Source: Phycisphaerae bacterium
GTDB taxonomy: Bacteria > Planctomycetota > Phycisphaerae > SM23-33
Direction of reading: 5' to 3'
Assembly (NCBI GenBank): GCA_009783465.1
Contig: WRDM01000002.1
Span: forward strand, 42,097 to 106,096
DNA: 64,000 nucleotides
Shown: piece by piece, positions 341-46,846 of the stretch
Layout of the letters: the number at the start of each line of letters is the position of its first letter
Numbering within the stretch: position 1 is the first letter of the stretch
Position numbers and translations under genes: made by a program
The notes under the pieces: generated by a model
Databases searched by the model: none
Seen by the model: the letters and a program-made list of their open reading frames with translations, nothing else
What the model was told of the DNA's origin: nothing

Positions 341-2011
341 ATGACCACACACAACCTCCAACCCGCGCAGCCGCTCATCCGACGGTATCTGTTCGTCGCG
401 GCGGCCCTGTTGGCGGCGGTGTATCTGGCGTGCGTCAACGACCGCTGGTATCCCACGCCCGACAGCGCCTTGTACGCCGGGCTGGGGCGGTCGCTCGCTG
501 AAGGGCGAGGGTACGTTTTCAATGGCGGAGTGGACAACACGGCCACGCCGGGCCTGCCGGCCGTCATCGCGGCGGCGAGGCTCCTCACCGGCGGCGACGG
601 CTGGTGGGTGTGCAACCTGTTCATCACGGCCTCGGGGTTGGCGGCGTTATTATTCATCCGGGCCGTGTTGCGAAAACTGCTGCCCGCCGACGCGCCGCCA
701 TCGACGAACTCATCGCCGTCACCGCCCACATCACGGCTGCGTGACACGATCGCATCGCCCGCGCCGGCGAAGTTATCCGCCGACCTGGCCACGCTCATGT
801 TGGCCGGCTCGTTTTTGTTCTTCGAGCATTCACACTATATTTTGACGGACATTCCGCTGGTCGCGTTGGCGTGGGCTGCCTTCTATGCCGCGCTGCGGGC
901 GACGCACGGACACTGGGCCTGGCTGGCGCTGGCGGCAGGGCTGTGCGTCGCCGCCATGACGATCCGCGCGCCGATGGCGCCGTTCCTGGCCTTGCTGGCA
1001 ACGGGACTGGTGTTTGGACCGTTGCCATGCGGAACGGTCCGCGAGGGCAAGTTATCCTCGCCACACGCGGGCGAGACGCCCGCGCCACGGGCCGCGCGAC
1101 GGCGTTGGTTCGCCGCCGCCGTGCTGCTGGCGGCCACCGCGGTCCCCTTCGCGTTCTGGTACGTTCTCGGCCGGTCGATCGGACCGCTGCCGTACGTCGA
1201 ATCCGCCACACGGCTGACGGCGGGATTTTTCGCGCGGGCAGGCGAGGCCGCGTGGGCGCAGGCCGGCGTCATGTCCACATTCCTCATCGGCGTGCCCAGC
1301 ATGCCCTGGCTGGGCTTGATCCTCTGGCCGGTGGCGCTGTTGGGATTGGCCGTGCTGTGGCGGGGCTTTTGGCTGGGCCTGCTCGTGCTCGTGCCGTACA
1401 CGCTGTTCATCGCCGTCATCCGCGCTGCCGACAACCCCGATCGCTTCATGCTGCCGGTGGCGCCGCTGGTCTACCTCGGCCTGACGCAGGGCGTCTGGTC
1501 GCTCGCGACGGCGGCAGGCCACCTCGCGCGAGCACGGCGAAATCACGCGACCACCGCGTTGATCGTCCTGACGGCGGCCATCCTGCTCGCCAACGTCGTG
1601 CCGATGGCCAAGTTGGTGCATCGCATGGCCTGGCTGGCCCACACCGACCGCTACGACACCGAGGCCAAACGCGGCTTCGTGGGCGAACACAAAAAAGTCG
1701 CCGAACTCCTCGCCAACGAACTGCCCGAAGAAGGCCGATTCCTCGCCACCCGAGGCCCCGGACGAATCGTGTACTATTACAGCGGGCGACCCTTCATCAC
1801 CCCGCCGCCGCACAATGACGGCCTGCTCGGCCCCGACGATGCACAGGAACTCTGGAACCTCTGGCAGGCAAACCCCGACATCCGCATCGCCGTCCTGCCC
1901 TGGCATGGCCGACAAAAACACCACGCCTACACCGCCCGCATCGCCGAACTCTTCGCCAGCGAACGCGAACTCCACCGCGGCAACACGATGATCGTCTTCG
2001 AACGTCGCTAA
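341..2011 (+). CDS. GT39/ArnT-like membrane glycosyltransferase (PMT_2 family), carries short in-frame palindromic element
   Basis: 556 aa polytopic membrane protein; N-terminal DSALYAGLGRSLAEGRGYVF motif typical of ArnT/PMT family; peptide PHAGETPAPR at nt ~1062-1092 encoded by a copy of the in-frame palindromic element. Confidence 0.55.
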   Translation: MTTHNLQPAQPLIRRYLFVAAALLAAVYLACVNDRWYPTPDSALYAGLGRSLAEGRGYVFNGGVDNTATPGLPAVIAAARLLTGGDGWWVCNLFITASGLAALLFIRAVLRKLLPADAPPSTNSSPSPPTSRLRDTIASPAPAKLSADLATLMLAGSFLFFEHSHYILTDIPLVALAWAAFYAALRATHGHWAWLALAAGLCVAAMTIRAPMAPFLALLATGLVFGPLPCGTVREGKLSSPHAGETPAPRAARRRWFAAAVLLAATAVPFAFWYVLGRSIGPLPYVESATRLTAGFFARAGEAAWAQAGVMSTFLIGVPSMPWLGLILWPVALLGLAVLWRGFWLGLLVLVPYTLFIAVIRAADNPDRFMLPVAPLVYLGLTQGVWSLATAAGHLARARRNHATTALIVLTAAILLANVVPMAKLVHRMAWLAHTDRYDTEAKRGFVGEHKKVAELLANELPEEGRFLATRGPGRIVYYYSGRPFITPPPHNDGLLGPDDAQELWNLWQANPDIRIAVLPWHGRQKHHAYTARIAELFASERELHRGNTMIVFERR

Positions 2012-4358: not shown

Positions 4359-7300
4359 ATGCTGGGGTTGTCGCGTCGAGCGTTTCTTCAAGTCACCGCC
4401 GGCTCCGCGGGCGCCGTGGCCGCCTCCATGGGCCTGCGACAGGCGGGAAAACTCATCCCCTACGTCGTGCCCCCCGAGGAAATAAAACCAGGCCAGTGGG
4501 CGACCTTCGCGACCACCTGCCGCGAGTGCCCCGCCGGCTGCGGGCTGCACGCGCGGCACCGCGACGGCCGGGCCATCAAAGCCGAAGGCAACCCGCAAAG
4601 CCCCGTCAACCGCGGCGCGCTGTGCGCCCGCGGGCAATCCGCCGTGCAAGGCCTGTACGACCCCGACCGGCTGCGACACCCGCTGCGACGCGTCCACCGC
4701 GACGCGACGCTCGAACACGCCGCCTGGGCCGATGCCATTGCTGCCGTCATCGAAATCCTGAAAAAACCACAGAAAAACGTCCACATTGTCAGCGACTTGC
4801 AAACCGGCGCACTGGCGGAAGTGCAAACCGCCTTCGCCGCACTCCACGGCAGCGAGCCCGTGCTGTACTTCGAGCCGTGCAACTACGAACCGCTTCGCGA
4901 CGCCCACCGCATCGCCCTGGGCCTGGACGCAATCCCGCGATACCGCATCGAGCGAAGCCGCTACATTCTCAGCCTCGGCGCGGACTTCCTCGAAACGTGG
5001 ATCTCGCCCGTGGAGTTCGCTCGCGGCTTCGCAAACGCTCGCGAAATCCGCCCCGCCGAATACGGCCGCGATCCGTACGAGTCGCCGCCGCGCAGGCCCG
5101 GAAAATTGGTATACGTCGGGCCTCGACTGTCCATGACGGCCGCCAACGCGGATGAGTTTTTCCAATGCCAAAGCGGTGCCGAAGGCTGGATTGCCCTGGC
5201 GATTCTTCACGAACTGCTCGCCGCGGATTGGGTGCAAAACCAACGCGACGCGATCGCGGCAGCCGCGAAAATAGTGGGCGCCGAGCACGCGCTCAATCAC
5301 GCGGGGTTAGAAAAATCCACCGTCGCCCGCCTGGCCCACGAGTTCGCCGCCGCGCGCGGCGCGGTCGCGCTGGCGTGTCCGACCGCCGCCACGGGCGATG
5401 CGGCACGATGGGCTTCGCTGGCGGCCATCCTTCTCAACGTCGCCGTCGGCAGCGGCGGCAACGATGCGGAGAACAACGGCGTCATCGTCGATTTCTCGCA
5501 GCCGCACGCGCTGAGCGCCGCCGCCAAACTACGCGAAGTCGCCGATCGGTTGGCCTCGCTGGGGCCAAACGACGTCGTGATTCTGCACAACGCCAACGTG
5601 GCGTTCGCCCTGCCGGCAGCGGCGGCGGGATTACAAAACGCCGCCGCCGTGATTTATCTCGGCCCGCAGCTCGATGAAACCGCCGAACTCGCCGACGTCG
5701 TGCTGCCCACCGATTCGCCTCTGGAAGCCTGGGGCGACTACGAACCGTACGCGGGCATGCACAGCCTGATTCAGCCGACGACGGCCCGGCTGTACAATTC
5801 GCGAAACGCAGGCGACATCCTGCTGGCGCTCGCGCAGGCGACGAACCGCCCGCTCACTCCGCCGTACGCGTCAAGCCCGCCGGAAGATTTCCTGCACTGG
5901 CTGCGGCTGCGATGGCAACATTTTCACCCGCAACACGACTGGCAGGACGCCCTCCGCGCCGGCGGGGAGTTTGACGAGACGCCAGGTGGCGAGATGCCCG
6001 CTTCACGTGACGCGGGCGTCTCGCCCGCGTTGTGTGTTCCACTGTCCTGGCCTATGGAATACAGTAAATCTGTTCCACAGCACAGCGCGGGCAAGATGCC
6101 CGCGAGACACGAGGGCGAGACGCCCTCGTCACGTGAAGCAGACACCCGCGCCGCAGACGACCATTTCCATCTCTGGCTGTGGCCTTCGGTGTTCCTCTTC
6201 GACGGCCGGTCAGCCAACAGGCCGTGGTTGCAGGAGGCGCCCGATCCGACGACCCAGGCCACCTGGAGCAGTTGGGCGGACATGCATCCCGACCGTGCCG
6301 CCGCGCTGGGCCTGCGCGGCGGCGACGCCATTCGCATCCAACTGTACGACGCCACGGACAAATCCGCCGCCATCACCCTGCCCGTGCGAATCACCGCCGA
6401 CGTCGCCGACGACACCCTCGCCGTCGTCCTGGGCCAGGGGCACTGGGCGATGGGCAACACCGCCCGCAACCTCGGCGCCAACGCCTTCCGCCTCCGCCCG
6501 ATTCAACCGACGCGCGACAACTTCCCCGCCGTACGCGTCCGCCGTGCCGCCGGGGCCAATCCATTGTCCTATCATCCAACATCCGCCATGCAGGATCAGC
6601 ATCGCCGCGAACTGCTCCAGTGGACATCACTCGCGCAGGCGTCGGCCGACCCGCCCCCGCCGCGCGACGACGCGTTTCGCATGCCGCTGCCGGAAGGCTA
6701 CCGCACCGACGCCTACGCACCGCACGAACACCGCAACCACCGCTGGGCGATGGCGATCGACCTGCACCGATGCGTCGGCTGTGGCGCGTGCGCGGTCGCG
6801 TGCTACGCGGAGAACAACATCCCCGTCGTCGGGCCCGCCGAAGTGGATCGAGGCCGCGAAATGGCCTGGCTGAAAATCGTCCCCTACCGCTCGCCCCACG
6901 ACGCGGGCCGGCTGGGCTTCCTGCCGATGCTCTGCCAGCACTGCGACGCCGCCCCGTGCGAACCGGTCTGCCCCGTCTACGCGTCCATGCACACCGAGGA
7001 AGGCCTCAACGCCCAAGTCTACAACCGCTGCATCGGCACGCGGTACTGCAACAACAACTGTCCCTACAAGGCCCGGCGGTTCAACTGGTTCGACCGCGAC
7101 TGGCCGGAGTCGTCGCGATGGCAGCACAATCCCGAAGTCACCGTTCGCGAGCGCGGCGTGATGGAAAAATGCACCTTCTGCATTCAGCGAATCCGCCACG
7201 CCCAGCACCGCGCCCTCCGCGAAGACAGGCCGCTGCGAGACGGCGAAATCCAGCCCGCGTGCGTCGCCACCTGCCCGACCTCGGCCATGATCTTCGGCGA

Positions 7301-7427: not shown

Positions 7428-9382
7428 CCTACGCACAAATCGACGATGCCGTTCTCGGCGCGATGGCGCCGGCGAGGCGGCGGTATGTCGTCATCATGCT
7501 CGTGCTGGGCGGGCTTGTGGCGATGTTTTTCACCCTATGGATTCACCAGGCCCGCACGGGCATGGGCGTGGCCGGGATCAACTCGCCGGTCGGCTGGGGC
7601 GTGTACATCGCGTCGTTTGTGTTCTGGGTGGGCATCGCGCACAGCGGGACGTTGATTTCCGCCATCCTGCACCTGGTCCGCGCGAAATGGCGCACCGCGG
7701 TGGCCAGGTCCGCCGAGGCCATGACGATTTTCGCCGTCATGACCGCGGGGCTGTTCCCGCTGATCCACCTCGGTCGGGTGGGCGTGTTTTATTACATTCT
7801 GCCGTACCCGACCACGCGGCAGATTTACCCGAATTTCCTCAGCCCGCTGGTGTGGGACGTCGTGGCCATCTCGACCTACTTCACGGTCAGCCTGGTCTTC
7901 TGGTATGTCGGCCTGCTGCCGGATCTGGCCAGCGCCCGCGACCGCTGGCACCGCCTGGTCGGCCCCCATCACCCGCGCACGCGATTCTATCACGCCCTGG
8001 CCATGGGATGGTCCGGCAGCGGCAACCAGTGGCGGCATCACGGGCGGGCATACCTGTTCTTCGCCGCCCTGGCCACGCCATTGGTCATCAGCGTGCATTC
8101 GGTCGTCTCGTGGGATTTCGCGATGTCCATCCTGCCGGGATGGCACACGACGATGTTTCCGCCGTACTTCGTCGCCGGGGCCATTCACTCGGGACTGGCC
8201 ATGGTTATCGTGCTCCTGCTGCCGATGCGGAAACTTCTGCGGCTGGAAAGCCTCGTCACCGACTGGCACTTCGACTGCCTGGCCAAGACCCTCCTCGTCA
8301 CCACGTGCATCATGGGCTATTCGTATATCATCGAGCCGTTCACCGCCTGGTACAGCGGCAACGTGATCGAGCGGCAATTCATCCACTGGCGGGCGTTCGG
8401 CGACACCTGGCTGACGCCGGGCTACTGGTCGATGTGGCTGCTGAACGTCATCGTTCCGCTGGCGTTTTTCGTGCCCCGCCTCCGCCGCAGTCCCACCGCG
8501 CTGATGCTCATTTCCCTTGGCATCACGATCGGCATGTGGCTGGAGCGCGGCGTGATCGTGCCGGCAAGCCTCGCCCACGACTTCATGCCCCACGCCTGGG
8601 GCCAATACGTCCCCAGGCCAATCGAATGGGGAATTCTCCTGGGCTCGTTCGGCTGGTTTTTCTTCTGGTTTTTCGGCTTCGCGAAATTTTTACCGACCAT
8701 CGCGGCGAACGAGGTGAAAGAAGAAACGCATCGCGATGGCTTGCCGGCACCACGTGACGCGGGCGTCTCGCCCGCGTTGTGCGCTCCATGTGACTGGCTA
8801 CTGGAAAACGCCAAGTCGTCTTCAACATCGGACGCGGGCAAGATGCCCGCGAGACACGAGGACGAGACCCCCGCGTCACGTTACGTCTGGGGAACATTCG
8901 ACACGCCCGCCGCGTTGATCGCCGCCGTGCGGCAACTGCGTGACGACGGCGTGACGGGCATGGAGACGTACACGCCGTTTCGGTTACAGGAGGTGGAAAA
9001 ACTGCTCGGACGCGGCCCCAGCCCGGTGCGGCTGTGGACGTTGGCGGGCGCGTTGGCGGGCGCGGCGGGCGGATTCGCGTTGGCGATCGGCCTGGCGGCG
9101 ATTAACGGGCTTGTCGTCGGCGGGCGGATTTCCTACGCCGTCATCGTGCCGTACTGCGTGATCGCTTTCGAAGGCACGATCCTGCTGGGCGTGCTGGCGA
9201 ACGTGACGGGATTGTTTTTTCATGGCCGCCTCGGCAGCGCGAGGCCGTTGCCGCGCGGATACGTCCGGCGGATTTCGGAAGACCGTTTCGGCCTGCTCAT
9301 CCCGTGTGATCGCGAGCAGGTCGGCGCGATGCGGGAGCGGCTGAGCACCCTGTGCGCGGAGGCGATCCATGTCGTCGAATGA
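7415..9382 (+). CDS. actC: Alternative complex III ActC (NrfD-like polytopic subunit) fused in-frame to ActD via a palindromic element linker
   Basis: Starts MERLTYAQIDDAVLGAMAPARRRYVV (ATG overlapping actB stop); ~10 TM NrfD/PsrC-like body; after element (8749-8883) reading frame continues into YVWGTFDTPAALIAAVRQLRDDGV... (ActD/DUF3341-like) with C-terminal TM; no stop or restart between. Confidence 0.7.
   Translation: MERLTYAQIDDAVLGAMAPARRRYVVIMLVLGGLVAMFFTLWIHQARTGMGVAGINSPVGWGVYIASFVFWVGIAHSGTLISAILHLVRAKWRTAVARSAEAMTIFAVMTAGLFPLIHLGRVGVFYYILPYPTTRQIYPNFLSPLVWDVVAISTYFTVSLVFWYVGLLPDLASARDRWHRLVGPHHPRTRFYHALAMGWSGSGNQWRHHGRAYLFFAALATPLVISVHSVVSWDFAMSILPGWHTTMFPPYFVAGAIHSGLAMVIVLLLPMRKLLRLESLVTDWHFDCLAKTLLVTTCIMGYSYIIEPFTAWYSGNVIERQFIHWRAFGDTWLTPGYWSMWLLNVIVPLAFFVPRLRRSPTALMLISLGITIGMWLERGVIVPASLAHDFMPHAWGQYVPRPIEWGILLGSFGWFFFWFFGFAKFLPTIAANEVKEETHRDGLPAPRDAGVSPALCAPCDWLLENAKSSSTSDAGKMPARHEDETPASRYVWGTFDTPAALIAAVRQLRDDGVTGMETYTPFRLQEVEKLLGRGPSPVRLWTLAGALAGAAGGFALAIGLAAINGLVVGGRISYAVIVPYCVIAFEGTILLGVLANVTGLFFHGRLGSARPLPRGYVRRISEDRFGLLIPCDREQVGAMRERLSTLCAEAIHVVE
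8749..8883 (+). repeat. in-frame palindromic element (IPE family) at actC/actD junction
   Basis: CCACGTGACGCGGGCGTCTCGCCCGCGTTGTG...GACGCGGGCAAGATGCCCGCGAGACACGAGGACGAGACCCCCGCGTCACGTT; encodes PRDAGVSPALCAPCDWLLENAKSSSTSDAGKMPARHEDETPASR. Confidence 0.85.
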
Positions 9383-14630: not shown

Positions 14631-15038
14631 ATGGCCAAAACCTTCGAAGAGTATCGCGTGCTTTCTCAACCGGCGGCGTGGGCGTTGCTGTTTCTGCTGG
14701 CCGGTGGCATTCTCGCGTGGGGCCTGTTCGTGAAATCCGTCATTCCCAACACACCGCGCGTCCACAACTACGGCGCCCTGCCCGACGCACCGGGACAATC
14801 CATCTACTCCACAAACCCCACGCCGCGCGACACCACCGCACCGCCGCAATATCAAACGCTCCCCGAAGCCAAACGTGACGCGGGCGTCTCGCCCGCGTTG
14901 TGCGTTCCATTGGCCGAGGCACCGGAAAACGATCTCTCGACTTCGCCATCCGGCACGGGCAAGATGCCCGCGGGACACGAGGGCGGGACGCCCTCGTCAC
15001 GTGAGACGCCCACATCACACGCAGAGGCGTCGCCATGA
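14631..15038 (+). CDS. small membrane protein whose C-terminal third is encoded by an in-frame palindromic element
   Basis: N-terminal TM (AWALLFLLAGGILAWGLFV); C-terminal ...AKRDAGVSPALCVPLAEAPENDLSTSPSGTGKMPAGHEGGTPSSRETPTSHAEASP*; stop overlaps next start (ATGA). Confidence 0.35.
   Translation: MAKTFEEYRVLSQPAAWALLFLLAGGILAWGLFVKSVIPNTPRVHNYGALPDAPGQSIYSTNPTPRDTTAPPQYQTLPEAKRDAGVSPALCVPLAEAPENDLSTSPSGTGKMPAGHEGGTPSSRETPTSHAEASP
14874..15004 (+). repeat. in-frame palindromic element (IPE family) forming the C-terminus of a small membrane protein
   Basis: AAACGTGACGCGGGCGTCTCGCCCGCGTTGTG...CACGGGCAAGATGCCCGCGGGACACGAGGGCGGGACGCCCTCGTCACGTGA. Confidence 0.85.
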
Positions 15039-15629: not shown

Positions 15630-15719
15630 CGGAGAGGTCGGGATTCGAACCCGAGGTACGGCGTTAAACCGTACACCGGTTTAGCAAACCGGCGCTTTCA
15701 GCCGCTCAGCCACCTCTCC
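15630..15719 (-). tRNA. tRNA-Ser (anticodon GCU)
   Basis: Reverse complement GGAGAGGTGGCTGAGCGGCTGAAAGCGCCGGTTTGCTAAACCGGTGTACGGTTTAACGCCGTACCTCGGGTTCGAATCCCGACCTCTCCG: 7-bp acceptor stem, anticodon loop TTGCTAA, long variable arm, GGTTCGAATCC T-loop; architecture matches E. coli tRNA-Ser(GCU). Confidence 0.85.
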
Positions 15720-21909: not shown

Positions 21910-23454
21910 CTACGTAGCCGCCGCTCCAAAACGTACGATCGGTCCAACCAGGCGCTCCATCGCCATGCCTCGCGAGCCTTTGATCAGGATCGTGTCGCCC
22001 GCTCGCAGCAGCGCGGGCAAGGCCTCGATGGCGGACTCGACGGAATCGAACTCCGCCGTCCGCGCCGTCGCGCCCGCCGACGCGGCGCCTCGCGCGATAT
22101 ATCGTCCCAACAGGCCGATTCCAATGAGAAAATCCACCCGCCCAGACGCGATCTCCCTGCCCGTCCGTTCGTGCAGCGAAATCGTCGACTCGCCAAGCTC
22201 TCGCATGTCGCCGGCGATCATCACGCGACGCGCGCCCGGCTGGTCGCCCAGCACGTCCGCGGCCGCGGCCATGCTGGCGGGGTTGGCGTTGTACGCGTCG
22301 TTAATCAGCCGCACGCTGCCGGCGGGCACGGCCTCCAGCCGCATCTCCACGCCACCGAAATCCGCCAACGCCGCCGCCGCGTCCTCCGCGCTCACGCCCA
22401 GACACGCCGCGGCCGCCATCGCCGCCGTCGCGTTGCTCGCACTGTGACGTCCCGGCTGCGGCAACACCACGCGCACGTCCCGCCCGCCAACGCGAACGGA
22501 AAACCGCACGCAGTCCGCGCCACCCTCGAAATCCACCAGCCGCCAATGGGCATCCGCCGACTGGCCAAACCATGTCACCGCCGCTCCACCCGTCGCCGCA
22601 ACCGCTTCGCGACGCAACGACTCGTTGTCCGCCCACACCACCGCCTGGCCCGCTCCGCGCAGCCCTGCGTAGCTCAACGAGCGAAGCAGGGACGCCTTCT
22701 CCTTCGCCACCAATTCCAGGCTGCCAAGTTTTTCCAGGTGCGTCTCGCCCACCGACGTAATCACGGCCACGTCGGGCCGGCAGATCTCGCCCAATTGCGT
22801 GATCTCGCCCGGCGCGTTCGTACCGACCTCGCACACGACGTACTGATCGCACTCGCCAACGCCCAACAGCGTCAGCGGCACGCCGATGTTGTTATTAAAA
22901 CTCTTCGGACTGCACGTTCCGTGTAAACGTGACGCGGGCGTCCCGCCCGCGACACGACTCAGAATGTGATGCAACATCCGCTTGGTGGTCGTCTTTCCGT
23001 TGGACCCCGTGACGGCGATCACGCGGGCGGGCATCGCGTCGCGGTGCCACCGTCCCAGCCTGCCCAACGCCGCCAGCGTGTCCGACACGCCAATCAACCG
23101 ATCGCCAAACCGCCGCGCCAAATCAGCCGGCAGCGGCACGCGAACATCCACCAGCGCCCCGCCCGCGCCGGCGGCGAACGCCTGCGGAAGAAAATCGTGC
23201 GCGTCGAATGTCTCGCCCTTGATCGCGATAAACAACGGCCCGTCCGGCCCAATCTTCCGACTGTCCATTTCGACGGCCTCGACACTCACCGCCGCCAGCG
23301 AACGTACGGCAGCGCTGGCGACATTCACATCCGCGCCGGCGCAGTCCGCGCCAGGCCACCAGAACGATTGGCCGTCCACGATTTTTCGAATGTCTTCCAG
23401 CGACGTCCGCTTCATAACAACACACCTGGCAATACATTCTGCTATCACATCCAA
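21910..23454 (-). CDS. murF: UDP-N-acetylmuramoyl-tripeptide--D-alanyl-D-alanine ligase, carrying a partial in-frame palindromic element
   Basis: Mur ligase domains (GSNGKTTTK P-loop, NNNIGVPLTLL); peptide SRVAGGTPASRLHG encoded by element fragment at 22927-22956. Confidence 0.8.
   Translation of the reverse strand: MDVIAECIARCVVMKRTSLEDIRKIVDGQSFWWPGADCAGADVNVASAAVRSLAAVSVEAVEMDSRKIGPDGPLFIAIKGETFDAHDFLPQAFAAGAGGALVDVRVPLPADLARRFGDRLIGVSDTLAALGRLGRWHRDAMPARVIAVTGSNGKTTTKRMLHHILSRVAGGTPASRLHGTCSPKSFNNNIGVPLTLLGVGECDQYVVCEVGTNAPGEITQLGEICRPDVAVITSVGETHLEKLGSLELVAKEKASLLRSLSYAGLRGAGQAVVWADNESLRREAVAATGGAAVTWFGQSADAHWRLVDFEGGADCVRFSVRVGGRDVRVVLPQPGRHSASNATAAMAAAACLGVSAEDAAAALADFGGVEMRLEAVPAGSVRLINDAYNANPASMAAAADVLGDQPGARRVMIAGDMRELGESTISLHERTGREIASGRVDFLIGIGLLGRYIARGAASAGATARTAEFDSVESAIEALPALLRAGDTILIKGSRGMAMERLVGPIVRFGAAAT
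22927..22956 (-). repeat. in-frame palindromic element fragment (single hairpin unit) inside murF
   Basis: acgtgacgcgggcgtcccgcccgcgacacg. Confidence 0.7.
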
Positions 23455-23759: not shown

Positions 23760-25304
23760 TCATCGTTTCACCAACATCTCGCGCACCACTTCGGCATCAT
23801 CAAAATGATGTTTGGTTTCCTCGACAATCTGGTACGTTTCGTGCCCTTTGCCGGCTAACAAAATCACGTCGCCTTCGCGGGCGTGCTGAATCACCCGCTC
23901 GATCGCCTTGCGGCGGTCGGGTTCGACGTGCGTTTTGGCCAGGCCTGCCGGTGTGAAGCCGGCGAGGATTTCGTCGATGATCGCGCGGGGGTCTTCCGTT
24001 CGCGGGTTGTCGCTGGTGACGACGACGGCGTCAGCAAGTTCTTCTGCCACGCGGGCCATCCGAGGCCGTTTGAGTCGGTCGCGATCGCCGCCACAGCCGA
24101 ACATCACGATCAGCCGCCCCCGCGTCACGGGCCTGACCGCCGACAGCACGTTCGCCATCGCGTCGTCCGTATGAGCGTAATCCACGTACACCGTGAACGG
24201 CGCGTCCACCGGCACGCGGTCAAGCCGCCCCGGCACGCGAACGCCCTTCGTCAACGTCGAGGCGATCACGTCCCACGACACGCCCAACCCGCGACAAATA
24301 CCCGCCGCCGCGAGACCGTTCCGCACGTTGTGCTTGCCGATCAGCGGGCTGGCAATCATGATCTCACGTGACGCGGGCGTCTCGCCTGCGTTGTGCGTGC
24401 CATGGGATTGGCCATTAGAAGACGTCAAACCGTCTTCGCCCGACGCGGGCAAGATACCCGCGTCACGCATCACAAACTCCGTGCCGCGGTCGCTGATGTC
24501 GCGAATCACAGCGCCGAGCGTTCTCGGCCCGTCCAGGCCGTAACTCACCACACGGCCTCGCGTCACCGCCGCCATCGCCTCGCCCGACGGATCGTCAAAA
24601 TTAATCACCGCCGTCGCGGAGGCGGGCAACTCCGCAAAGAGAATCCGCTTGGCCGCGAGATAATTCGCCATCGTCTTGTGATAGTCCAAATGCTCGCCGG
24701 TCAAATTCGTGAACGCCGCCGCCGCGTACTCCACGCCGGCCACCCTGCCCTGATCCAGCGCGTGCGACGACACCTCCATCACCAGGTGCGTTCGACCGGC
24801 CTGTACCATCTCGGCCATCATCTCCGCCAAGTCCACCGCGCCGGGCGTGGTGTTGTTGGCCTCGACGCTGGTTTTTCCGGTTTCGTAGGCAATCGTGCCC
24901 AGCAGCGCCGGCCGATGGCCCGCCGCCTCCAGGATCGCCCGCACCAGCAGCGTGATGGTGCTTTTTCCCTTCGTGCCCGTCACGCCGATGTTGATCAACT
25001 TCCGCGCCGGCCAGCCGTGAAACGCCTGCGCCATCGGCCCGAGCGCCCGCGCGGAACTCGACACCACAGCCCACGGCACGGACGCGGGCACGGCAGCGGC
25101 ATCCTCGCACACCACCGACGTCGCCCCGCCCGCCAACGCCGCCGCGATAAAATCATGCCCATCCACCACAGGCCCGCGCACGGCCACGAAACACGCCCCC
25201 GCGGCGCAGCGTCGCGAGTCGCTCACCAGCGAGGCCACAGGCCCGTCGCCGCGGCGAACGACCACGTCCACCCCCGCCGATGCCAACAATTCCGACAGAC
25301 GCAT
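23760..25304 (-). CDS. murE: UDP-N-acetylmuramoyl-L-alanyl-D-glutamate--2,6-diaminopimelate ligase, carrying in-frame palindromic element
   Basis: Mur ligase domains (GVTGTKGKSTIT P-loop, DNPRTEDP); internal ...SSNGQSHGTHNAGETPASREIMIA... encoded by element at 24364-24469. Confidence 0.85.
   Translation of the reverse strand: MRLSELLASAGVDVVVRRGDGPVASLVSDSRRCAAGACFVAVRGPVVDGHDFIAAALAGGATSVVCEDAAAVPASVPWAVVSSSARALGPMAQAFHGWPARKLINIGVTGTKGKSTITLLVRAILEAAGHRPALLGTIAYETGKTSVEANNTTPGAVDLAEMMAEMVQAGRTHLVMEVSSHALDQGRVAGVEYAAAAFTNLTGEHLDYHKTMANYLAAKRILFAELPASATAVINFDDPSGEAMAAVTRGRVVSYGLDGPRTLGAVIRDISDRGTEFVMRDAGILPASGEDGLTSSNGQSHGTHNAGETPASREIMIASPLIGKHNVRNGLAAAGICRGLGVSWDVIASTLTKGVRVPGRLDRVPVDAPFTVYVDYAHTDDAMANVLSAVRPVTRGRLIVMFGCGGDRDRLKRPRMARVAEELADAVVVTSDNPRTEDPRAIIDEILAGFTPAGLAKTHVEPDRRKAIERVIQHAREGDVILLAGKGHETYQIVEETKHHFDDAEVVREMLVKR
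24364..24469 (+). repeat. in-frame palindromic element (IPE family) inside murE (opposite orientation to host gene)
   Basis: TCACGTGACGCGGGCGTCTCGCCTGCGTTGTG...GACGCGGGCAAGATACCCGCGTCACG. Confidence 0.85.
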
Positions 25305-34868: not shown

Positions 34869-36113
34869 TCAGTCCTGGCCCATCATCTCGAGATAGAGTT
34901 TTTCGTGGGCGGCGACCATGGTATCGACGGCGAAGGTTTCGGCGCGGCGGCGGGCGACGGTGGCCATGTGACGGCGGAGTGGCGTGTCGTGGGCGAGGCG
35001 TATCATGGCCTCGGCGAGGGCGGCAGGGTTTTCGGGCGGGATGAGCAGGCCGGTTTGGCCGGGGAGCATGACGTCGCGGAGTCCCTCGACGTCGGTGGCG
35101 ATCACGGGCAGCGAGGCGGCCATCGCTTCGACCGCCGACAGGCCAAACCCTTCCCAGCGGCTTGGCATGACCAGGAAATCGCCCGCAGAGTACAGGCCCG
35201 CGATCTCGTCAACAAACCCCGGAAACACCACCCGTACCGCCCCGTCGGCAGGCTGATTCCGCACAAATTCCTCGACCATCCCCTGCCAAGGCCCCTGCCC
35301 GGCGATGGCAACGACAAGCCGGGCCCGTGACGCGGGCGTCTCGCCCGCGTTGTGTGATCCATAGGCCTGGCCGTTAGAGGACGAACAAGCGTCTTCGCCT
35401 CCAGACGCGGACGAGACATCCGCGAGACACGCGGGCAAGATGCCCGCGTCACGTGGCCCCAACCGCTGGGCCGCCAGCGGCAACGCCTGGAGCAGAATGT
35501 CCAGCCCCTTCTGATCACATAACCGGCCGGCCCAGACGGCCAACCGATCCGCCTCGCCGACGCCAAGCCGCTCCCGCCACGCCAAGCCTCGCGACGCGTT
35601 CCGTGCATACGCGGCCAGGTCGATGCCGTTTTCGATCGTCACGCACCGCCGGGGCGAAATCCCCGACCGCCGAATGTGGTCCGCCCGCACGCTCTCCGAC
35701 ACGCACACGACAGGCCCGCGACGCTGGAACAGCCGACCGTACAGACTCCGCCACGGCAGAAACCGCCGCTCGGCTACGTGAACGGTGTGGGCCACGCGCG
35801 GCACGCCCGCCAGCCTCGCCGCCAGCCGCCCGGCCAGGTCGGCGTGGAACAAATGCGTGTGCACCATATCAAACCGCCCCGCCGCCAGCCATCGCGACAG
35901 CTCGCGAACCTTCAGCACGTCCCACTTGCCCGCCACGCCGAGCACGAACACCTCCACGCCGGCATCGCGAAGCCGCTCAGCGACGGCCCCGCCACGCAAC
36001 GCCGCCACACTCACACCAAACCGCGACCGGTCCAGCCGCGTCGCCAACTCATACACCACCCGCTCGGCGCCGGCGGGGGCAAGCTCGGTGATCATTTCAC
36101 ACACGCGAATCAT
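34869..36113 (-). CDS. GT4-family glycosyltransferase carrying in-frame palindromic element
   Basis: GT-B fold group-1 glycosyltransferase motifs (EGFGLSAVEAMAASLPVIATDVEG); internal ...ASGGEDACSSSNGQAYGSHNAGETPASRARLVV... encoded by element 35325-35456. Confidence 0.7.
   Translation of the reverse strand: MIRVCEMITELAPAGAERVVYELATRLDRSRFGVSVAALRGGAVAERLRDAGVEVFVLGVAGKWDVLKVRELSRWLAAGRFDMVHTHLFHADLAGRLAARLAGVPRVAHTVHVAERRFLPWRSLYGRLFQRRGPVVCVSESVRADHIRRSGISPRRCVTIENGIDLAAYARNASRGLAWRERLGVGEADRLAVWAGRLCDQKGLDILLQALPLAAQRLGPRDAGILPACLADVSSASGGEDACSSSNGQAYGSHNAGETPASRARLVVAIAGQGPWQGMVEEFVRNQPADGAVRVVFPGFVDEIAGLYSAGDFLVMPSRWEGFGLSAVEAMAASLPVIATDVEGLRDVMLPGQTGLLIPPENPAALAEAMIRLAHDTPLRRHMATVARRRAETFAVDTMVAAHEKLYLEMMGQD
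35325..35456 (+). repeat. in-frame palindromic element (IPE family) inside GT4 glycosyltransferase gene
   Basis: CCGTGACGCGGGCGTCTCGCCCGCGTTGTG...GACGCGGACGAGACATCCGCGAGACACGCGGGCAAGATGCCCGCGTCACGTG. Confidence 0.85.
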
Positions 36114-42651: not shown

Positions 42652-45168
42652 ATGAGCGATAAATCGTCATTGACGGCCGCTACGGCGGGATCGAAAGCCC
42701 ATCCGTGGATCTGGGTGGACGAGGACGTTCTCGGTCCAGGCCAGGTGGCATGGTTTCGGCTGCGATTCGATGCCCGCCGGGGCCAGGACGTGCGGTGGAC
42801 AGGCTTTGCCGACAGCATGTACACGTTGTATTTCAACGGGCGTGAAATGGGCGTCGGTCCGTGCACGGGATTGGCCGCCAAGCCGAGGCTGACGACGTGG
42901 AACCTGTCCTCGCTGATCTCCGACGGCAGCAACGTGCTGGCGTTGGAGGTGTGGTTCGACGACCCCAACTCGCCGCCGACCGACGTGGACATCATTCAAG
43001 CCGGCGTGCTGGGCTGGCTGAGCGTGGACGATCAGATCACGCCCACCGGCACGCAGTGGAAGGCCTGCCGGATCGCCCGCGCGGGGCTGGCCAGGAAAGA
43101 ACGCCGCAGTTTCGCCGCCCGGCGGATCACCGTGCTGGATCTGCGAGGCCGACGCAGCGACTGGCACGAACCCTTCTTCGACGACTCCCGCTGGGCGTCG
43201 GCCGTCGTGGTCGGCCGACCCGACCCGTACGAATTGCGGCACGACCCGCTCGGGCCTCTGACGTCGACGGTCCGTCCGGTGGCCTCCCTCATCGACGCGG
43301 GCGTCGCCACCGGCGGAGGCGAGGTGCAATTCGCCGACGACGTCGCCGCCCGGATGAAATCGCAGTCACACCGCAGCCTGGTGCGGAACGTCCACCGCTT
43401 CACCGTCCTCTCCACCGAGGAACGCGAAGGGCTGGCCATCTCACTGCCCCGCCCGCACCGCCTGCCGAACCTCCAGTGGACCAACGCCAACGCCGCCCCC
43501 ACAGGCCCGGTCCGCATCCCGCCCTGCGACGGCGAATTCTATCTCTGCGTCGACTTCGGCATGCAAACCAGCGGGCAGGTCTGGCTGGATATCGACTGCG
43601 CCAACACCCTCAGCGTCGACCTCGGCTACGCCGACCACCTCCGCAACGGCCGCGTCGATCCCCTGCTCCAACAGCACGCTTTCGCGGACCGCCTGATCCT
43701 CTCCAAGGGCCGGCAGTACGTCCATCTGCCGACCGATCGCGGCTTTCGCTACCTGCAAATGACCTTCAGCGGCGAGGCCACGCTGCACGAAATCTCCGTG
43801 CGCGAGCACGTCTATCCCATCGACACCCGGACACGGTTCGCGTGCAGCGACCCCACGCTCAACAGTGTGTTCGCGTTGGCCCAGACGACGGCGAGGCAGT
43901 GCTCGCTCCACTCGCACGTGGACAACGCCCGCCGCGAACGCCAGGGCTGGGGCGGGCCCGATCTCTACGCGCAGGCGCACGGCTTTTTCCACATCGCCGG
44001 CGACTTGCGGCTGACGCGGAAAATGCTCGAGGATTACGTCGATTCCTTCGACACGCACGGATTCATCCCGAATTTCTGCCCGTCGTCCATTCTGTTCCTC
44101 AAGTGGATCTCCGCGCACGACCTGTGGTTCCCTATCGTCGCGTGGGATTACATCATGTATTCCGACGACCGCGAGTTGGCCCCGCGCCTGCTGGCCGCCA
44201 GCCAGGCCGTCCTGGACTTCTACCGCCCCGACGCCAGCGGGCTGATCCTTCGCGCCCACGAAAACGCCTGCCGGTGGACCGAATGGAACATGAACTCCGC
44301 GTTCAACGCCTCGACGTGGGAGAATCTGCTGGCGATCGTCGCGTGGCGGTCCGTCTCGACCTTGCAGCGGTATCTCGGTGTGTCGGACGCCGACCAGGCC
44401 GCCGACGCCGCCAACGCGCTGGCCGCCGCCGTCAACGCCCGGCTGTGGCACGAGGAACACAACGCCCTCGCGCAGGGTACGATGGAAGACGGCAGCCTGT
44501 CGGATTTCTGTGCCCAGGTCGACAACGCCTTCGCGCTGCGGCACGACATCATCCCGCCCGACCGTGCCGAGGCGGCCTACCGATTCTGCGCCGGACGCAG
44601 CGGCACGTGGCCGACCTCGCGCAGCGGCTGGCAGGGCTACGGCCAAGGCGAACGCGTCCGCTACGACCCGCGAAAGCCCGTCGTCGCGGGCACGCCCTTC
44701 ACCAGTTCCCTGTGCGCCCAGACCATCGCGCACCTCGGCTCGCCCGCCGAGGTCGTCCAGTATCTGCGGTACAACTTCGGCGCCATGATCGACGAAGGCG
44801 AAGGCGGGCTGTGGGAGATGTGGCCGATTTTCATGCGCGAGGACGTGGCCTCGACGTGCTTCAGCCAGGGGTACGGCATCCACATCGCGGCGACGCTGAT
44901 TGGCGACGTGCTGGGGCTGCGTTTCGCCTCGCCGGGCGGTCGCGAGCTGACCTTCACGCCGCGGAACACCGGCCTGGCGTGGATCGAGGGCGAGGTGCAG
45001 ACCGTTCACGGCATCGCGCACGTCCGCCGCGAGGGCGCGAAATTCCAGTACAATCTCCCCGCCGGCGTGACGCTGCGGATCATCACGGGCCCGGCGAAAT
45101 CCGACCAGAAAATCACCGGCCAAGGCGTGGTAACCGTCCATGACCGACGTGCAAGCGACAGGCGATAG
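42652..45168 (+). CDS. glycoside hydrolase family 78-like (alpha-L-rhamnosidase-type six-hairpin) protein
   Basis: ORF trimmed to MSDKSSLTAATAG; DNARRERQGWGGPD resembles GH78 catalytic-domain DxxxRERxGWxGD motif; ~840 aa multi-domain. Confidence 0.5.
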   Translation: MSDKSSLTAATAGSKAHPWIWVDEDVLGPGQVAWFRLRFDARRGQDVRWTGFADSMYTLYFNGREMGVGPCTGLAAKPRLTTWNLSSLISDGSNVLALEVWFDDPNSPPTDVDIIQAGVLGWLSVDDQITPTGTQWKACRIARAGLARKERRSFAARRITVLDLRGRRSDWHEPFFDDSRWASAVVVGRPDPYELRHDPLGPLTSTVRPVASLIDAGVATGGGEVQFADDVAARMKSQSHRSLVRNVHRFTVLSTEEREGLAISLPRPHRLPNLQWTNANAAPTGPVRIPPCDGEFYLCVDFGMQTSGQVWLDIDCANTLSVDLGYADHLRNGRVDPLLQQHAFADRLILSKGRQYVHLPTDRGFRYLQMTFSGEATLHEISVREHVYPIDTRTRFACSDPTLNSVFALAQTTARQCSLHSHVDNARRERQGWGGPDLYAQAHGFFHIAGDLRLTRKMLEDYVDSFDTHGFIPNFCPSSILFLKWISAHDLWFPIVAWDYIMYSDDRELAPRLLAASQAVLDFYRPDASGLILRAHENACRWTEWNMNSAFNASTWENLLAIVAWRSVSTLQRYLGVSDADQAADAANALAAAVNARLWHEEHNALAQGTMEDGSLSDFCAQVDNAFALRHDIIPPDRAEAAYRFCAGRSGTWPTSRSGWQGYGQGERVRYDPRKPVVAGTPFTSSLCAQTIAHLGSPAEVVQYLRYNFGAMIDEGEGGLWEMWPIFMREDVASTCFSQGYGIHIAATLIGDVLGLRFASPGGRELTFTPRNTGLAWIEGEVQTVHGIAHVRREGAKFQYNLPAGVTLRIITGPAKSDQKITGQGVVTVHDRRASDRR

Positions 45169-46846
45169 CGATAGTGCGTTCATGGCCGCCGCGTTGGCGT
45201 GTGCGGCCTTGGGTCGCGGGCACGTCGAACCGAACCCGATGGTCGGCGCGGTGTTGGTACGCGACGGGCGGGAGATCTCCCGCGGGTTTCATCGGCGATT
45301 CGGCGGGCATCACGCGGAGGTGGAGGCCGTGCTCGCCGCCCGCGCCGCCGGGACCGACCTGCGCGGCGCGACGCTCTATGTCACGCTCGAGCCGTGCTGC
45401 CACACCAACAAAAAAACACCCCCCTGCGCGCCGATGCTCGCGGGGCTGGGCCTGCGACGCGTCGTCGTCGCGATGGAGGATCCCGACCCCAACGTGCGAG
45501 GCCGCGGATTGGCCATGCTTCGCGACGCGGGCGTGGCGATAACAACCGGCGTGTGCGAAGCGGCCGCGAAAACTCTGTTGCGTGCGTACGTCAAACTGCG
45601 AACGCAGGGCAGGCCGTGGGTGATCTGTAAATGGGCGCAGACCGCCGACGGCTATCTCGCGCTGCCGCCGTCGGCGGGGCGATGGATCAGCGGCGAGGCG
45701 TCGCGGCGGGACGTCCACCGCCTGCGGGGCCTGTGCGACGCGATCCTCGTCGGCGTGGGCACGGTGCTCGCCGACGACCCCCTGCTCAACAACCGCTCCG
45801 GCGAAGGCAAACAGCCAACCCGCATCGTGCTGGACACCCATCTCCGCACGCCGCCAACCAGCCGACTCGTCCAGACCGCCCGCGAGTTCCCGCTGATGAT
45901 CGTCACACAAGCACACAACGCGGGCGAGACGCCCGCGCCACGTAGCACGGGCGTCCCGCCCGTGAGTCGCATGGGCGTCTCGCCCATGCAACCGCAGCCG
46001 ATCAGCGAAACGTTCCTGATGCAAGCCGACGCGCTCCGCAACGCCGGCGTGGAACTCCTCGAACTGTCCACCGACGACAGCTTCGGTGGCAAAATCCACC
46101 TCCCCGCCCTGCTGGACGAACTGGGCCGGCGACGCATGACGTACCTGCTCGTCGAAGGCGGACACCGCGTGCTGCAACGTTTCCTCCACGCCGGCCTGGC
46201 GGACGAAATGCGAACGTACACCTCGCCACGAACCCTCCGCGACGAGTTCCTGTCCGAAGCCCTCGCCACGCTGCCGCACATGGACACACGGGAATTTCCG
46301 TCGCCAGGCATGGACTTGGAAGTCAGCCAGCCGCTCGGCGAGGATACGCTGCGCGGCTACGCGCGGGCAGCCGCGACCGTCCGTTCAGGCGAGGACAAGC
46401 GAAAACATGGCGAAGATGACGGCGGCGTTACTCGTCTGACAGGCAACGAATTAGGCGATGGCCTGGTGTTCGACCGGCTTTTGGAGGAAGCACGGAAGTA
46501 CGCCAGAACGAATTTTTTCGACAAAAAAGTGGCCATCGAGTCCGAAGGCGTTGAGGTTCTGGTTGCGATGAGTGGGATCAAACACACGCTGACAGCCGCT
46601 AAAACGAATGAGGATATCTATGCGGTTATCGCATTGCCTCAACTTCTACAGCGTGCCGTCAAGACAGGAGAATCGCCCGACAAACGCAACCGGAATAACG
46701 TCGTTGCCGTTGAGCGATATCGGGCTCCGCTCCGCATTGGCGACAATACGTACATGGCCGAGATGATTGTGAGAGTGGAGAAAAAAAGCACGAGAATGCT
46801 GGGCCATCTTCGCGTGTTCCACCACCAAGAACTGAAGGGCCTGTAG
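45140..46846 (+). CDS. ribD: riboflavin biosynthesis deaminase/reductase RibD with in-frame palindromic element and a ~150-aa low-GC C-terminal extension
   Basis: CMP/dCMP deaminase zinc motif (HAEVEA...PCCH...C) and RibD_C reductase domain; QAHNAGETPAPRSTGVPPVSRMGVSPMQPQP insert (45914-45988); residues after ~420 (nt ~46400-46846) have markedly lower GC and no RibD homology. Confidence 0.75.
   Translation: MTDVQATGDSDSAFMAAALACAALGRGHVEPNPMVGAVLVRDGREISRGFHRRFGGHHAEVEAVLAARAAGTDLRGATLYVTLEPCCHTNKKTPPCAPMLAGLGLRRVVVAMEDPDPNVRGRGLAMLRDAGVAITTGVCEAAAKTLLRAYVKLRTQGRPWVICKWAQTADGYLALPPSAGRWISGEASRRDVHRLRGLCDAILVGVGTVLADDPLLNNRSGEGKQPTRIVLDTHLRTPPTSRLVQTAREFPLMIVTQAHNAGETPAPRSTGVPPVSRMGVSPMQPQPISETFLMQADALRNAGVELLELSTDDSFGGKIHLPALLDELGRRRMTYLLVEGGHRVLQRFLHAGLADEMRTYTSPRTLRDEFLSEALATLPHMDTREFPSPGMDLEVSQPLGEDTLRGYARAAATVRSGEDKRKHGEDDGGVTRLTGNELGDGLVFDRLLEEARKYARTNFFDKKVAIESEGVEVLVAMSGIKHTLTAAKTNEDIYAVIALPQLLQRAVKTGESPDKRNRNNVVAVERYRAPLRIGDNTYMAEMIVRVEKKSTRMLGHLRVFHHQELKGL
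45914..45988 (-). repeat. in-frame palindromic element (IPE family, three hairpin units) inside ribD
   Basis: cacaacgcgggcgagacgcccgcgccacgtagcacgggcgtcccgcccgtgagtcgcatgggcgtctcgcccatgc; left end is exact reverse complement of the IPE terminal repeat. Confidence 0.8.

Follow-up and report, generated by a model that had tools for sequence, protein, structure and literature searches.

How does a dispersed palindromic repeat come to lie in frame within the gene of a conserved and probably essential enzyme, and what decides the place in the protein at which it is found? The question is raised by the murE gene in a stretch of 64,000 nucleotides from a Phycisphaerae bacterium (contig WRDM01000002.1 of assembly GCA_009783465.1, positions 42,097 to 106,096; the whole stretch is called the window hereafter). 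The open reading frame (ORF) of this gene carries a shortened copy of a palindromic element that occurs at nine sites of the window and is built from modules of the repetitive extragenic palindrome (REP) type. We consider it likely that the insert is a passenger repeat that is translated and has been retained at a permissive loop of MurE. Other loci and proteins that were compared are designated by L and P numbers, and all coordinates of features are collected in Table 1.

Codon mapping shows that the element in murE touches codons 280-313, that is 33-34 codons. The first-pass annotation of this DNA had described a 35-codon insert at 24364-24469; an insert is indeed present, at the smaller size of 99 bp (24368-24466). 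The peptide quoted in that annotation, ...SSNGQSHGTHNAGETPASREIMIA..., is found at aa 295-318 of the intact ORF. The residues R-D-A-G that follow FVM are encoded by the end of the element, which rules out 'DAG' as native MurE sequence. The arms of the palindrome (24367-24397 and 24437-24467) are 31 nt each and 81% complementary, and as sense RNA the insert has a minimum free energy (MFE) of -63.5 kcal/mol (z = -6.4 against dinucleotide shuffles). The encoded peptide is composed of 85% small or polar residues and 9% hydrophobic residues, with a net charge of -2. That the insert is a copy of a palindromic repeat family, as had been proposed, is borne out by the complementarity of its arms, by an excess of the end motif GTGACGCGGGNNTCT (21 copies in the window compared to 3.7 expected, a number that no shuffle reached) and by four 126-bp copies that align end to end, including the centre. 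The proposed reverse orientation relative to the gene is also correct by the convention that the murE copy shares the plus orientation of these four full copies while murE is on the minus strand. Compared with the full copies, the murE copy is without the outer 24-nt module and 3 further nt. Its net gain over insert-free orthologues, approximately +23 to +29 aa, is smaller than the insert because about five native loop codons (15 nt) have been lost.

The gene that carries this insert has all the features of a murE gene. The three Pfam domains Mur_ligase, Mur_ligase_M and Mur_ligase_C are all matched in the window MurE, solved MurE chains in the PDB match it at E = 1e-79 to 1e-89, and Foldseek comparison of its model with 2xja, 1e8c and 4c12 (MurE of M. 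tuberculosis, E. coli and S. aureus) gave template modelling (TM) scores of 0.83-0.88. The surrounding gene order, ftsI-murE-murF-mraY-ftsW-murG, is that of a canonical dcw cluster. In an orthologue alignment the columns of the P-loop, K219, DNPR and GKGHE motifs are unbroken, and the invariant columns G110, T111, G113, K114, T116, K219, D432, N433, P434, R435 and G485-E489 are intact; we take K219 to be the carbamylated lysine and DNPR to be the motif of specificity for diaminopimelate (DAP). Outside the loop, the ratio of nonsynonymous to synonymous substitution (dN/dS, by the method of Nei and Gojobori) is 0.235 against L001 and 0.225 against L003 at a dS of ~0.55, and with a dN/dS of ~0.2 murE is under purifying selection. 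Together, the intact ORF, the catalytic motifs, the synteny in the dcw cluster and this dN/dS suggest that the insert-bearing MurE is a working enzyme and that murE is essential in its host.

These observations also bear on the possibility that this murE is a decaying or redundant copy and that a working murE free of the insert lies at another place in the genome. The sequence is from an incomplete metagenome-assembled genome (MAG), and only one contig, of 117.6 kb, is known to carry this MurE: the sole 100% match to the protein is a protein annotated as MurE on a 117,636-bp contig of a Phycisphaerae MAG, and beyond that match a database of 5.8 billion proteins holds no protein with more than 80% identity to it. 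However, an intact ORF with conserved catalytic columns, evolving at a dN/dS of 0.23 in the canonical cluster, is not what would be expected of a redundant copy. In addition, insert-bearing murE genes occupy the same cluster position in L001, L004, L005 and L006, and no second murE is present in those loci of 14-22 kb. A redundant copy is therefore very unlikely. We give practically no credence to an assembly artefact, in which a repeat copy would have been misjoined into murE during metagenome assembly. Dispersed repeats do often cause misassembly of MAGs, but the junctions here are in frame, the flanking murE sequence is continuous apart from the 15 nt, and the identical protein is present in NCBI, JGI and ENA. 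The L001 (JGI) and L002 (ENA) assemblies share an identical insert, and inserts are found in the same loop in five other assemblies.

The insert had been placed between the central and C-terminal domains of the ligase. This placement is not borne out. Pfam Mur_ligase_M extends over aa 108-336 and Mur_ligase_C begins at aa 359, and PDB alignments break within query residues 262-316 and resume at query residue 317, which corresponds to E. coli residue 298. We built an AlphaFold model on 22 orthologues and assigned its strands with DSSP (mean predicted local distance difference test score, pLDDT, 90.5; predicted TM score, pTM, 0.89). This model has consecutive strands at aa 263-271, 274-281 and 313-319, followed by helices at aa 324-339 and 344-353 before the third domain. 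As Mur_ligase_M spans the insert and two central-domain helices come after it, the insert lies within the central domain, and comparison with the E. coli and M. tuberculosis structures, through the alignment break and the model, likewise puts it inside this domain and not at its boundary. In the model, the insert is the turn of a central-domain beta-hairpin just before the PLIGxHNxxN motif; the hairpin presumably belongs to the small antiparallel sheet of the Mur ligase central domain. The model suggests that the element probably adds a floppy loop of ~30 residues at the tip of this hairpin.

The same hairpin has received inserts repeatedly. Most of the 120 closest MurE homologues are ~489 aa in length, insert-free, and have a turn of 5-6 residues at the hairpin. 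Internal inserts of at least 20 aa are present in nine, eight of them at this hairpin and one elsewhere (P0082, aa 46). The eight proteins fall into five sequence groups that represent four independent events and three repeat families (Table 1), and at the five insert-bearing loci whose DNA was compared each insert is a strong palindrome, with a loop-region MFE of -77 to -147 kcal/mol. Events 2 and 3 occurred within a clade of MurE proteins that are 91-95% identical, of which the other members, P0010 and P0011, are empty at the site. If insertion were uniform along a protein of 490 residues, at least three of four further events would coincide in one 6-residue window with a probability of ~7e-6. 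Ordinary length variation follows the same pattern. Among 150 diverse MurE representatives, indels of at least 12 aa number 11 at aa 257-285 (the window protein included), compared to 7 around aa 454 and 6 at aa 14-22, and the hairpin region is thus the most length-tolerant part of the MurE family. The murE genes found in metagenomes (38-57% identity; one known contig, 73%) have no hairpin insert of at least 20 aa; matches that seemed long enough to be insert-bearing owed their extra length to the adjacent murF. A 'GETPA' at the hairpin of P0054 was considered as a module remnant and rejected as a chance match, the loop being of normal length.

Recurrence at one position could also reflect a DNA-level hotspot, with the elements recognising a target sequence or a local DNA structure in murE and murF. 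IS200/IS605-type HUH transposases use short specific target sites, and several details could be read in this way: the window, L001 and L044 have the same orientation and right-hand junction (..TCA CGT GAR), the native turn codons of L001 and L006 (TGT GGC GCG GG.) resemble the REP stem CGCGGG, and the ends of the elements are regularly flanked as AC-GTGA...TCAC-GT. Yet the common junction is explained by a single ancestral insertion in a clade with 99% bootstrap, the insertion points otherwise differ by a few codons among lineages, and ordinary indels also concentrate here in diverse MurE. The site is moreover not confined to MurE. In an alignment of six MurF sequences, the hairpin equivalent to the MurE site, just before LPxPGRHNxxN, carries composite elements in L001 and L006, although at this point MurE and MurF share a fold and not a DNA sequence. 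The repeats that occupy the loop belong to three families with unrelated termini (REP modules; GGGTGCCATGCTTCC...; AAAGGGGAC...), and because unrelated termini are found in the same loop, a filter acting after insertion is a better explanation than recognition of the site. We therefore regard a hotspot as unlikely. The first-pass annotation had offered two alternatives, that the element targets permissive loops or that it is only retained there. Retention is supported by the segment with pLDDT below 50, by the four events at the hairpin, by the MurF hairpin in two lineages and by the indel-rich region at aa 257-285, whereas targeting is not favoured.

The history of the insert can be followed in the closest relatives. 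The copies in the window, L001 and L044 have a common orientation and right-hand junction (in full, ...CCC GCG [T/C]CA CG[T/G] GAR). In L001 the insert has the centre with two modules to its left and one to its right, plus half a module more; in the window there is one module on each side, and in L044, whose contig is poor and whose murE has an in-frame stop further on, there is a single module. A neighbour-joining tree groups the window protein, P0003, P0002 and P0027 with 99% bootstrap, with the empty-site P0003 nested inside this group and the empty-site P0004 outside it. The simplest reading is of one ancestral insertion, remodelling in whole codons, and loss in P0003; repeated insertion is also possible. 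The turn of P0003 (L003 454-1926) is 6 residues longer than that of the outgroup (FDGGGGDESM compared to LCDGA) and may be a scar of the loss of the element.

The modules of the family follow a fixed design, a 4-nt tag followed by a 7-bp GC-rich stem, a 5-nt loop and the return stem, which together make a 19-nt stem-loop plus tag. Stems are CGCGGGC, CGAGGGC, CACGGGC or CATGGGC; the loop is GTCTC, ATCTT, GTCCC or ATCCT in the modules of one arm, and those of the other arm have its complement. There are 26 such modules in the window compared to 1.4 expected from shuffles, and 71-75 module clusters across the window and 44 loci. Outer modules, including both murE modules, are tagged GTGA, inner modules of full copies GTCT or GTCC, and modules with the CACGGGC stem GTAG (at 45946 and 62842) or GTAA (at 62703). 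Most of the other modules in the window are perfect, while both murE modules have a stem mismatch. In every composite copy, left-arm and right-arm modules face each other around a conserved centre of ~50 nt, which is shared by the four 126-bp copies and the L001 murF copies, and the terminal inverted repeats are GTGACGCGGG...CCCGCGTCAC. Most copies are flanked by AC and GT, and no clear target-site duplication can be defined, even by comparison with empty sites. The spacing of modules in arrays is exactly 24 nt, or 8 codons (for example in L001 12700-12866, L006 10531-10629 and window 6086-6132), and internal array modules are stop-free in all six frames, so that gain or loss of a module never breaks a reading frame.

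Table 1. Features of murE and of the element family in the window, and the four insertion events at the MurE hairpin. Positions are those of the window; for events, the loci and proteins are given.
Feature	Position or locus	Strand	Remarks
murE coding sequence (UDP-MurNAc-L-Ala-D-Glu:meso-DAP ligase)	23760-25304	minus	intact ORF, 514 aa; Pfam, PDB, Foldseek, synteny
Shortened REP-doublet (REPIN-like) palindromic element	24368-24466		99 bp; in-frame RDAGILPASGEDGLTSSNGQSHGTHNAGETPASR, aa 280-313
First terminal hairpin module	24368-24390	plus	GTGA + CGCGGGC-GTCTC-GCCTGCG, 1 stem mismatch; encodes ..AGETPAS(R)
Element centre, two small hairpins	24391-24443		family-specific; common to other window copies and L001 murF copies
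Second terminal hairpin module	24444-24466	minus	GTGA + CGCGGGT-ATCTT-GCCCGCG (minus strand), 1 stem mismatch; encodes (R)DAGILPA
Beta-strand aa 274-281, N-terminal arm of host hairpin	24462-24485	minus	DSSP, AlphaFold model
aa 288-309, only model segment with pLDDT <50	24378-24443	minus	predicted disordered loop
Beta-strand aa 313-319, C-terminal arm of host hairpin	24348-24368	minus	DSSP, AlphaFold model
PLIGKHNVRN motif, aa 320-329, directly after hairpin	24318-24347	minus	invariant P320, L321, G323, H325, N326, N329
Full 126-bp copy	6007-6132		in frame, ActB-like molybdopterin/FeS oxidoreductase, aa 550-592, between Pfam domains
Full 126-bp copy	8754-8879		in frame, linker between NrfD/ActC part (aa 49-381) and ActD part (aa 485-647), one ORF
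Full 126-bp copy	14875-15000		near C-terminus of 135-aa ORF 14631-15038, usual element frame
Full 126-bp copy	35327-35452		in frame, GT4 glycosyltransferase, aa 221-263, junction of two Rossmann-type domains
Three hairpin modules, one GTAG-tagged	45915-45992		in frame inside RibD_C domain of ribD, aa 261-287
Related composite element	62699-62864		CACGGGC/CATGGGC stems, GTAA/GTAG tags; in frame upstream of GNAT domain, aa 176-231
Single hairpin module	1062-1088		in frame in ORF 329-2011 (weak PMT-like match, below Pfam cutoff)
Single hairpin module in murF	22929-22955		in frame, aa 167-176, RVAGGTPASR
Event 1	window, L001 (P0002), L044 (P0027)		REP-module composite
Event 2	L005 (P0005, P0007)		long hairpin GGGTGCCATGCTTCC...; second copy in L035
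Event 3	L004 (P0008, P0009)		two AAAGGGGAC... hairpins; related copy in L018
Event 4	L006 (P0048, ~55% identical to window MurE)		REP-module composite, purine-rich centre

Copies of the family lie in frame in open, conserved ORFs of the window, namely murE, murF and the ActB-like, ActC-ActD, GT4, ribD and GNAT ORFs. Copies 8754 and 14875 were considered as intergenic, and this was rejected by frame analysis of G+C content at third codon positions together with Pfam, which put the first in the ActC-ActD ORF and the second in the 135-aa ORF; the latter has a hydrophobic N-terminal stretch and no Pfam match and is a putative gene. All nine element sites, these two included, are readable in one element frame, whose peptide is rich in Gly, Ala, Ser, Pro and Thr. 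In the seven in-gene copies of the window that were first identified, the first tag base is at codon position 2, and the ends of the in-gene copies read (R)DAG... and ...TPAS(R). Across the window and the 44 loci, a strict filter places at least 37 of the 71 module clusters in ORFs that are long and coding-like. Left-arm modules are in frame 2, 1 and 3 in 28, 3 and 0 clusters, respectively (p = 6e-11 against one third and p = 5e-6 against one half), and right-arm modules are in frame 1, 2 and 3 in 27, 6 and 2 clusters (p = 1e-7 against one third). The length of the composite is a multiple of three in 21 of 28 cases inside ORFs but in only 7 of 19 outside (Fisher p = 0.015). The preferred frames give DAGVSPA and AGETPAS-type peptide, while the other frames give VTRASRPR, RARRPRH or CRGHLAR, which are Arg- or Cys-rich, or meet the TGA stop of the GTGA tag. 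Because of this single-frame bias, and because the preference for multiples of three is confined to ORFs, the sequence data suggest translation of the inserts and selection on the peptide.

The same data make it most improbable that the insert is absent from the mature protein, whether through ribosome bypassing of the type known from T4 gene 60 and the yeast mitochondrial 'byp' elements or through removal from the mRNA. Such a process might be suspected from the very stable sense-RNA hairpin described above, and GC-rich palindromic mobile inserts are bypassed in Magnusiomyces mitochondria. However, inserts that are skipped or spliced need neither preserve the frame nor be free of stops, and every in-gene copy is stop-free and in one of three frames (28:3:0 and 27:6:2). 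The bias to multiples of three is seen inside ORFs and not outside them, and the deletions in murE are of whole codons (24 + 3 + 15 nt). The insert-derived peptide in the murE frame includes GILPASGEDGLTSSNGQSHGTHNAGETPASR, and an insert-free junction would read FVM-EIMIA; neither a pair of take-off and landing codons nor a motif of an intron or intein is evident, and Rfam has no match at the site.

The insert could also have been co-opted, either as an RNA hairpin that regulates the dcw mRNA through stability, processing or translational pausing, or as a loop that mediates a protein contact. REPs stabilise upstream mRNA in E. coli. In L001 the stems are identical to the family consensus despite a host-gene dS of ~0.56, and recurrent acquisition at one position could mean benefit. 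Mur ligases interact with one another (PMC10214165), which is compatible with a role of the loop in such contacts. We nevertheless consider co-option improbable. The inserts at the site are unrelated between lineages and close relatives are insert-free, and the same element is found in the same frame in unrelated genes. Both murE modules in the window are mismatched in the stem, the closest orthologue clade includes an empty site, no U-tract follows the murE hairpin, which is thus not terminator-like, and an Rfam search of the window found no RNA family at the insert. A passenger fits mismatched stems, the missing U-tract and the missing Rfam match better than does a selected RNA structure, although the perfect stems of L001 leave some room for the latter.

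We propose to regard the insert as the decayed copy of a palindromic, non-autonomous repeat, in which REP-type modules form an inverted pair in the manner of a REPIN (REP doublet forming a hairpin). A copy landed in the hairpin-turn codons of the central domain of MurE, on the simplest reading in a common ancestor of L001, L044 and the window lineage. It would have survived because the added length preserved the frame and because the frame used is stop-free and encodes a peptide rich in Gly, Ala, Ser, Pro, Thr, Asp and Glu and of low hydrophobicity; the tip of the hairpin tolerates length, so that the peptide may loop out in a disordered state and leave the fold and the catalytic motifs undisturbed. 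Remodelling would then have proceeded in whole-codon steps, through an order that we can only suggest, to the states seen today: the full element with extra modules in L001; in the window, an element shorter by a 24-nt module and 3 nt, with 15 nt of the host also gone; one module in L044; and no recognisable remnant in L003. In this scheme the insert would be translated and tolerated as a passenger, without being a functional part of MurE, and it was probably mobilised by a RAYT-type (REP-associated tyrosine transposase) HUH enzyme such as that flanked by modules in the relative L046. Several points weigh against this reading. That the insert is translated and that the enzyme is active are both inferred from sequence. 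The low pLDDT of the loop may come in part from missing insert homologues in the 22-sequence alignment and not from true disorder. The right-hand junction common to three lineages, the perfect L001 stems and the recurrence at one site would also be expected from targeted insertion or from a selected RNA structure, and as to the mobilising enzyme, a tblastn search of the window and 45 loci found no RAYT gene.

A candidate for an enzyme of this type is present in L046 (GCA_964498305.1, CAZCIY010000387.1), where a RAYT-like gene, recognised by a weak precomputed match to PF01797, lies between murE and murF and is flanked by three and two (inverted) GTAG-tagged modules of the same design. The L046 murE runs stop-free through three modules into the RAYT-like gene and then through the two inverted modules, to end just before murF, and the whole stretch (111-2429) is called as one protein of 772 aa, P0082. 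This module-flanked RAYT-like gene is a REPtron. The MurE part of P0082 also has a separate palindromic insert of 39 aa in domain 1, at approximately aa 46.

The phenomenon of palindromic repeats within genes is already known from Rickettsia and from the intragenic REPs of Opitutus terrae, and the type of module described here is essentially published. Rickettsia palindromic elements (RPEs), RPE-1 and its relatives, were reportedly described by Ogata et al. 2000 and Claverie & Ogata 2003. Like the element in the window, RPEs are short dispersed palindromes, many of them in frame in conserved genes, that add a few tens of residues and occur in both orientations. They differ in G+C content, presumably in sequence, and in the phylum of the host, here Planctomycetota (Phycisphaerae), and the element here is modular, being built of 24-nt GTAG/GTGA-tagged REP hairpins. 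The share of copies in ORFs is also higher here (at least 37 of 71 clusters, with all nine window sites readable in an ORF) than in R. felis, where 85 of 728 RPEs are in ORFs (PMC1166351). Retention of RPEs in mRNA and protein has reportedly been shown by experiment, whereas here it is suggested by frame bias and whole-codon remodelling. The relation to RPEs would be one of working alike and not of membership by sequence.

A closer likeness is to the GTAG-tagged REPs of the Planctomycetes-Verrucomicrobia-Chlamydiae (PVC) superphylum, whose intragenic copies are most numerous in O. terrae, where GTGG variants also occur (Di Nocera et al. 2013, PMC3733652). REPs are defined there as short (20-40 nt) multicopy stem-loops with a GTAG or GTRG/GTGG tag; GTGA is not listed. 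The O. terrae GTAG-19 repeats encode GTGVPPV, TGGTPVP and HGRDARAT peptides in more than 60 genes (PMC3733652, Additional file 3). They share with our modules the unpaired tetranucleotide tag, the 7-bp GC stem and 5-nt loop, head-to-head and tail-to-tail (HH/TT) dimers, in-frame copies in housekeeping genes and a host in the PVC superphylum, and the window module GTAG-CACGGGC-GTCCC-GCCCGTG encodes STGVPPVS, which matches the published peptides. In contrast, the murE copy has CGCGGGC stems and a GTGA tag, and the modules belong to a conserved composite of 126 bp that has a centre of its own. The published O. terrae targets do not include murE or murF, and the text and Additional file 3 describe neither recurrence at one site nor the 24-nt period nor the bias in frame. 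The CGTC-tagged REP superfamily was considered for the GCGTCAC module end and rejected, as the stems of its members start with A/T and are accompanied by a CCA tail, and the tags here, GTGA or GTAG, are on the other side of the stem. The arrangement of two inverted REPs around a spacer conserved as one unit, together with the module-flanked RAYT-like gene of L046, recalls REPIN-RAYT systems. REPINs are described as extragenic and RAYT as usually single-copy (Bertels & Rainey 2011, PMC3116915), whereas most copies here are intragenic and probably translated, and tblastn of the window gave no RAYT. Bacterial MITEs (transposable elements of the miniature inverted-repeat type) in genes, such as Correia/NEMIS (PMC10969869), are likewise small and non-autonomous with terminal inverted repeats, and sometimes produce in-frame insertions or gene fusions. 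They differ in that the ends of the element here are REP hairpins and not inverted repeats derived from an insertion sequence (IS), that no target-site duplication is definable and that no parent IS is known.

New, as far as checked, are the host lineage, the murE and murF targets and the conserved composite of 126 bp. So too are the very high proportion of copies that lie in genes, the 24-nt period with its strong single-frame bias, and the finding that unrelated repeats recur at a single hairpin in both of two paralogous enzymes. The MurE central-domain hairpin accepts 26-65 extra residues from unrelated sequences, as does the equivalent MurF hairpin, and these cases amount to a natural insertion-tolerance map of the Mur ligases, which are validated antibiotic targets; such a map may be useful in the choice of sites for tags and reporters. 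The murE site presents empty, single-module, shortened and full states of one element together with three unrelated families. It is as such a test bed for how palindromic repeats enter conserved genes, and separates filtering by protein structure from targeting by a transposase better than single cases can. For the annotation of Planctomycetota MAGs, the repeats explain many odd differences in length and fused ORFs. We raise, as a tentative further possibility, that REP modules in this Phycisphaerae/PVC lineage have adapted to life inside coding sequence, by way of a period of 8 codons, internal modules free of stops and a strong preference for one frame, in which a flexible peptide of Gly, Ala, Ser, Pro and Thr is encoded. 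If this is so, modules would be a source of new loops, linkers and gene fusions, as in ActC-ActD and murE-RAYT, and inserts of this kind would have a general docking site in the Mur-ligase beta-hairpin.

Two ORFs of the window may themselves be products of fusion. The ORF at 7430-9382 (plus strand) joins the NrfD/ActC and ActD domains of Alternative Complex III by the element at 8754-8879, and may be a gene fusion made by a stop-free repeat between two genes. The stop-to-stop ribD ORF at 45134-46846 (plus strand) also contains an LPD3 domain at aa 450-553. Such a domain is uncommon in ribD, and the ORF may likewise have arisen by read-through fusion. The sole Rfam match in the window is a tRNA gene at 15630-15719 (minus strand), near the element-bearing small ORF 14631-15038.

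Outside the window, the 23-nt end module is widespread in two MAGs of Phycisphaerae or Tepidisphaeraceae, where many contigs carry it, and is also found on two contigs of a Kiritimatiellae MAG, and as a single copy in Verrucomicrobiales, Opitutaceae, Acidobacteriota, Binataceae and Acetobacteraceae. The Tepidisphaeraceae MAG DASRRR01 (L008, L019, L025, L029, L042, L043) has single GTGACGCGGGCGTCTCGCCCGCG hairpins directly followed by a T run (TTTTTAATAAAAAAA); these look like intrinsic terminators and not like in-gene inserts. Two further palindromic families of these Phycisphaerae MAGs are also found in frame in MurE, namely AAAGGGGAC...GTCCCCTTT hairpins (L004 7742-7885, L018 3130-3177) and GGGTGCCATGCTTCCGTCTTCGG... 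(L005 5493-5582, L035 5199-5231).

MurF is more heavily loaded than MurE, with four recurrent insertion sites of which one is homologous to the MurE hairpin. The module in the window murF is at a second MurF site, where L001 has a full composite. MurF lengths vary from lineage to lineage, with 514 aa in the window (21910-23454, minus strand), 617 aa in L001 (11672-13525, with two composites), 547 aa in L004 (8494-10137) and 538 aa in L006 (9665-11281).

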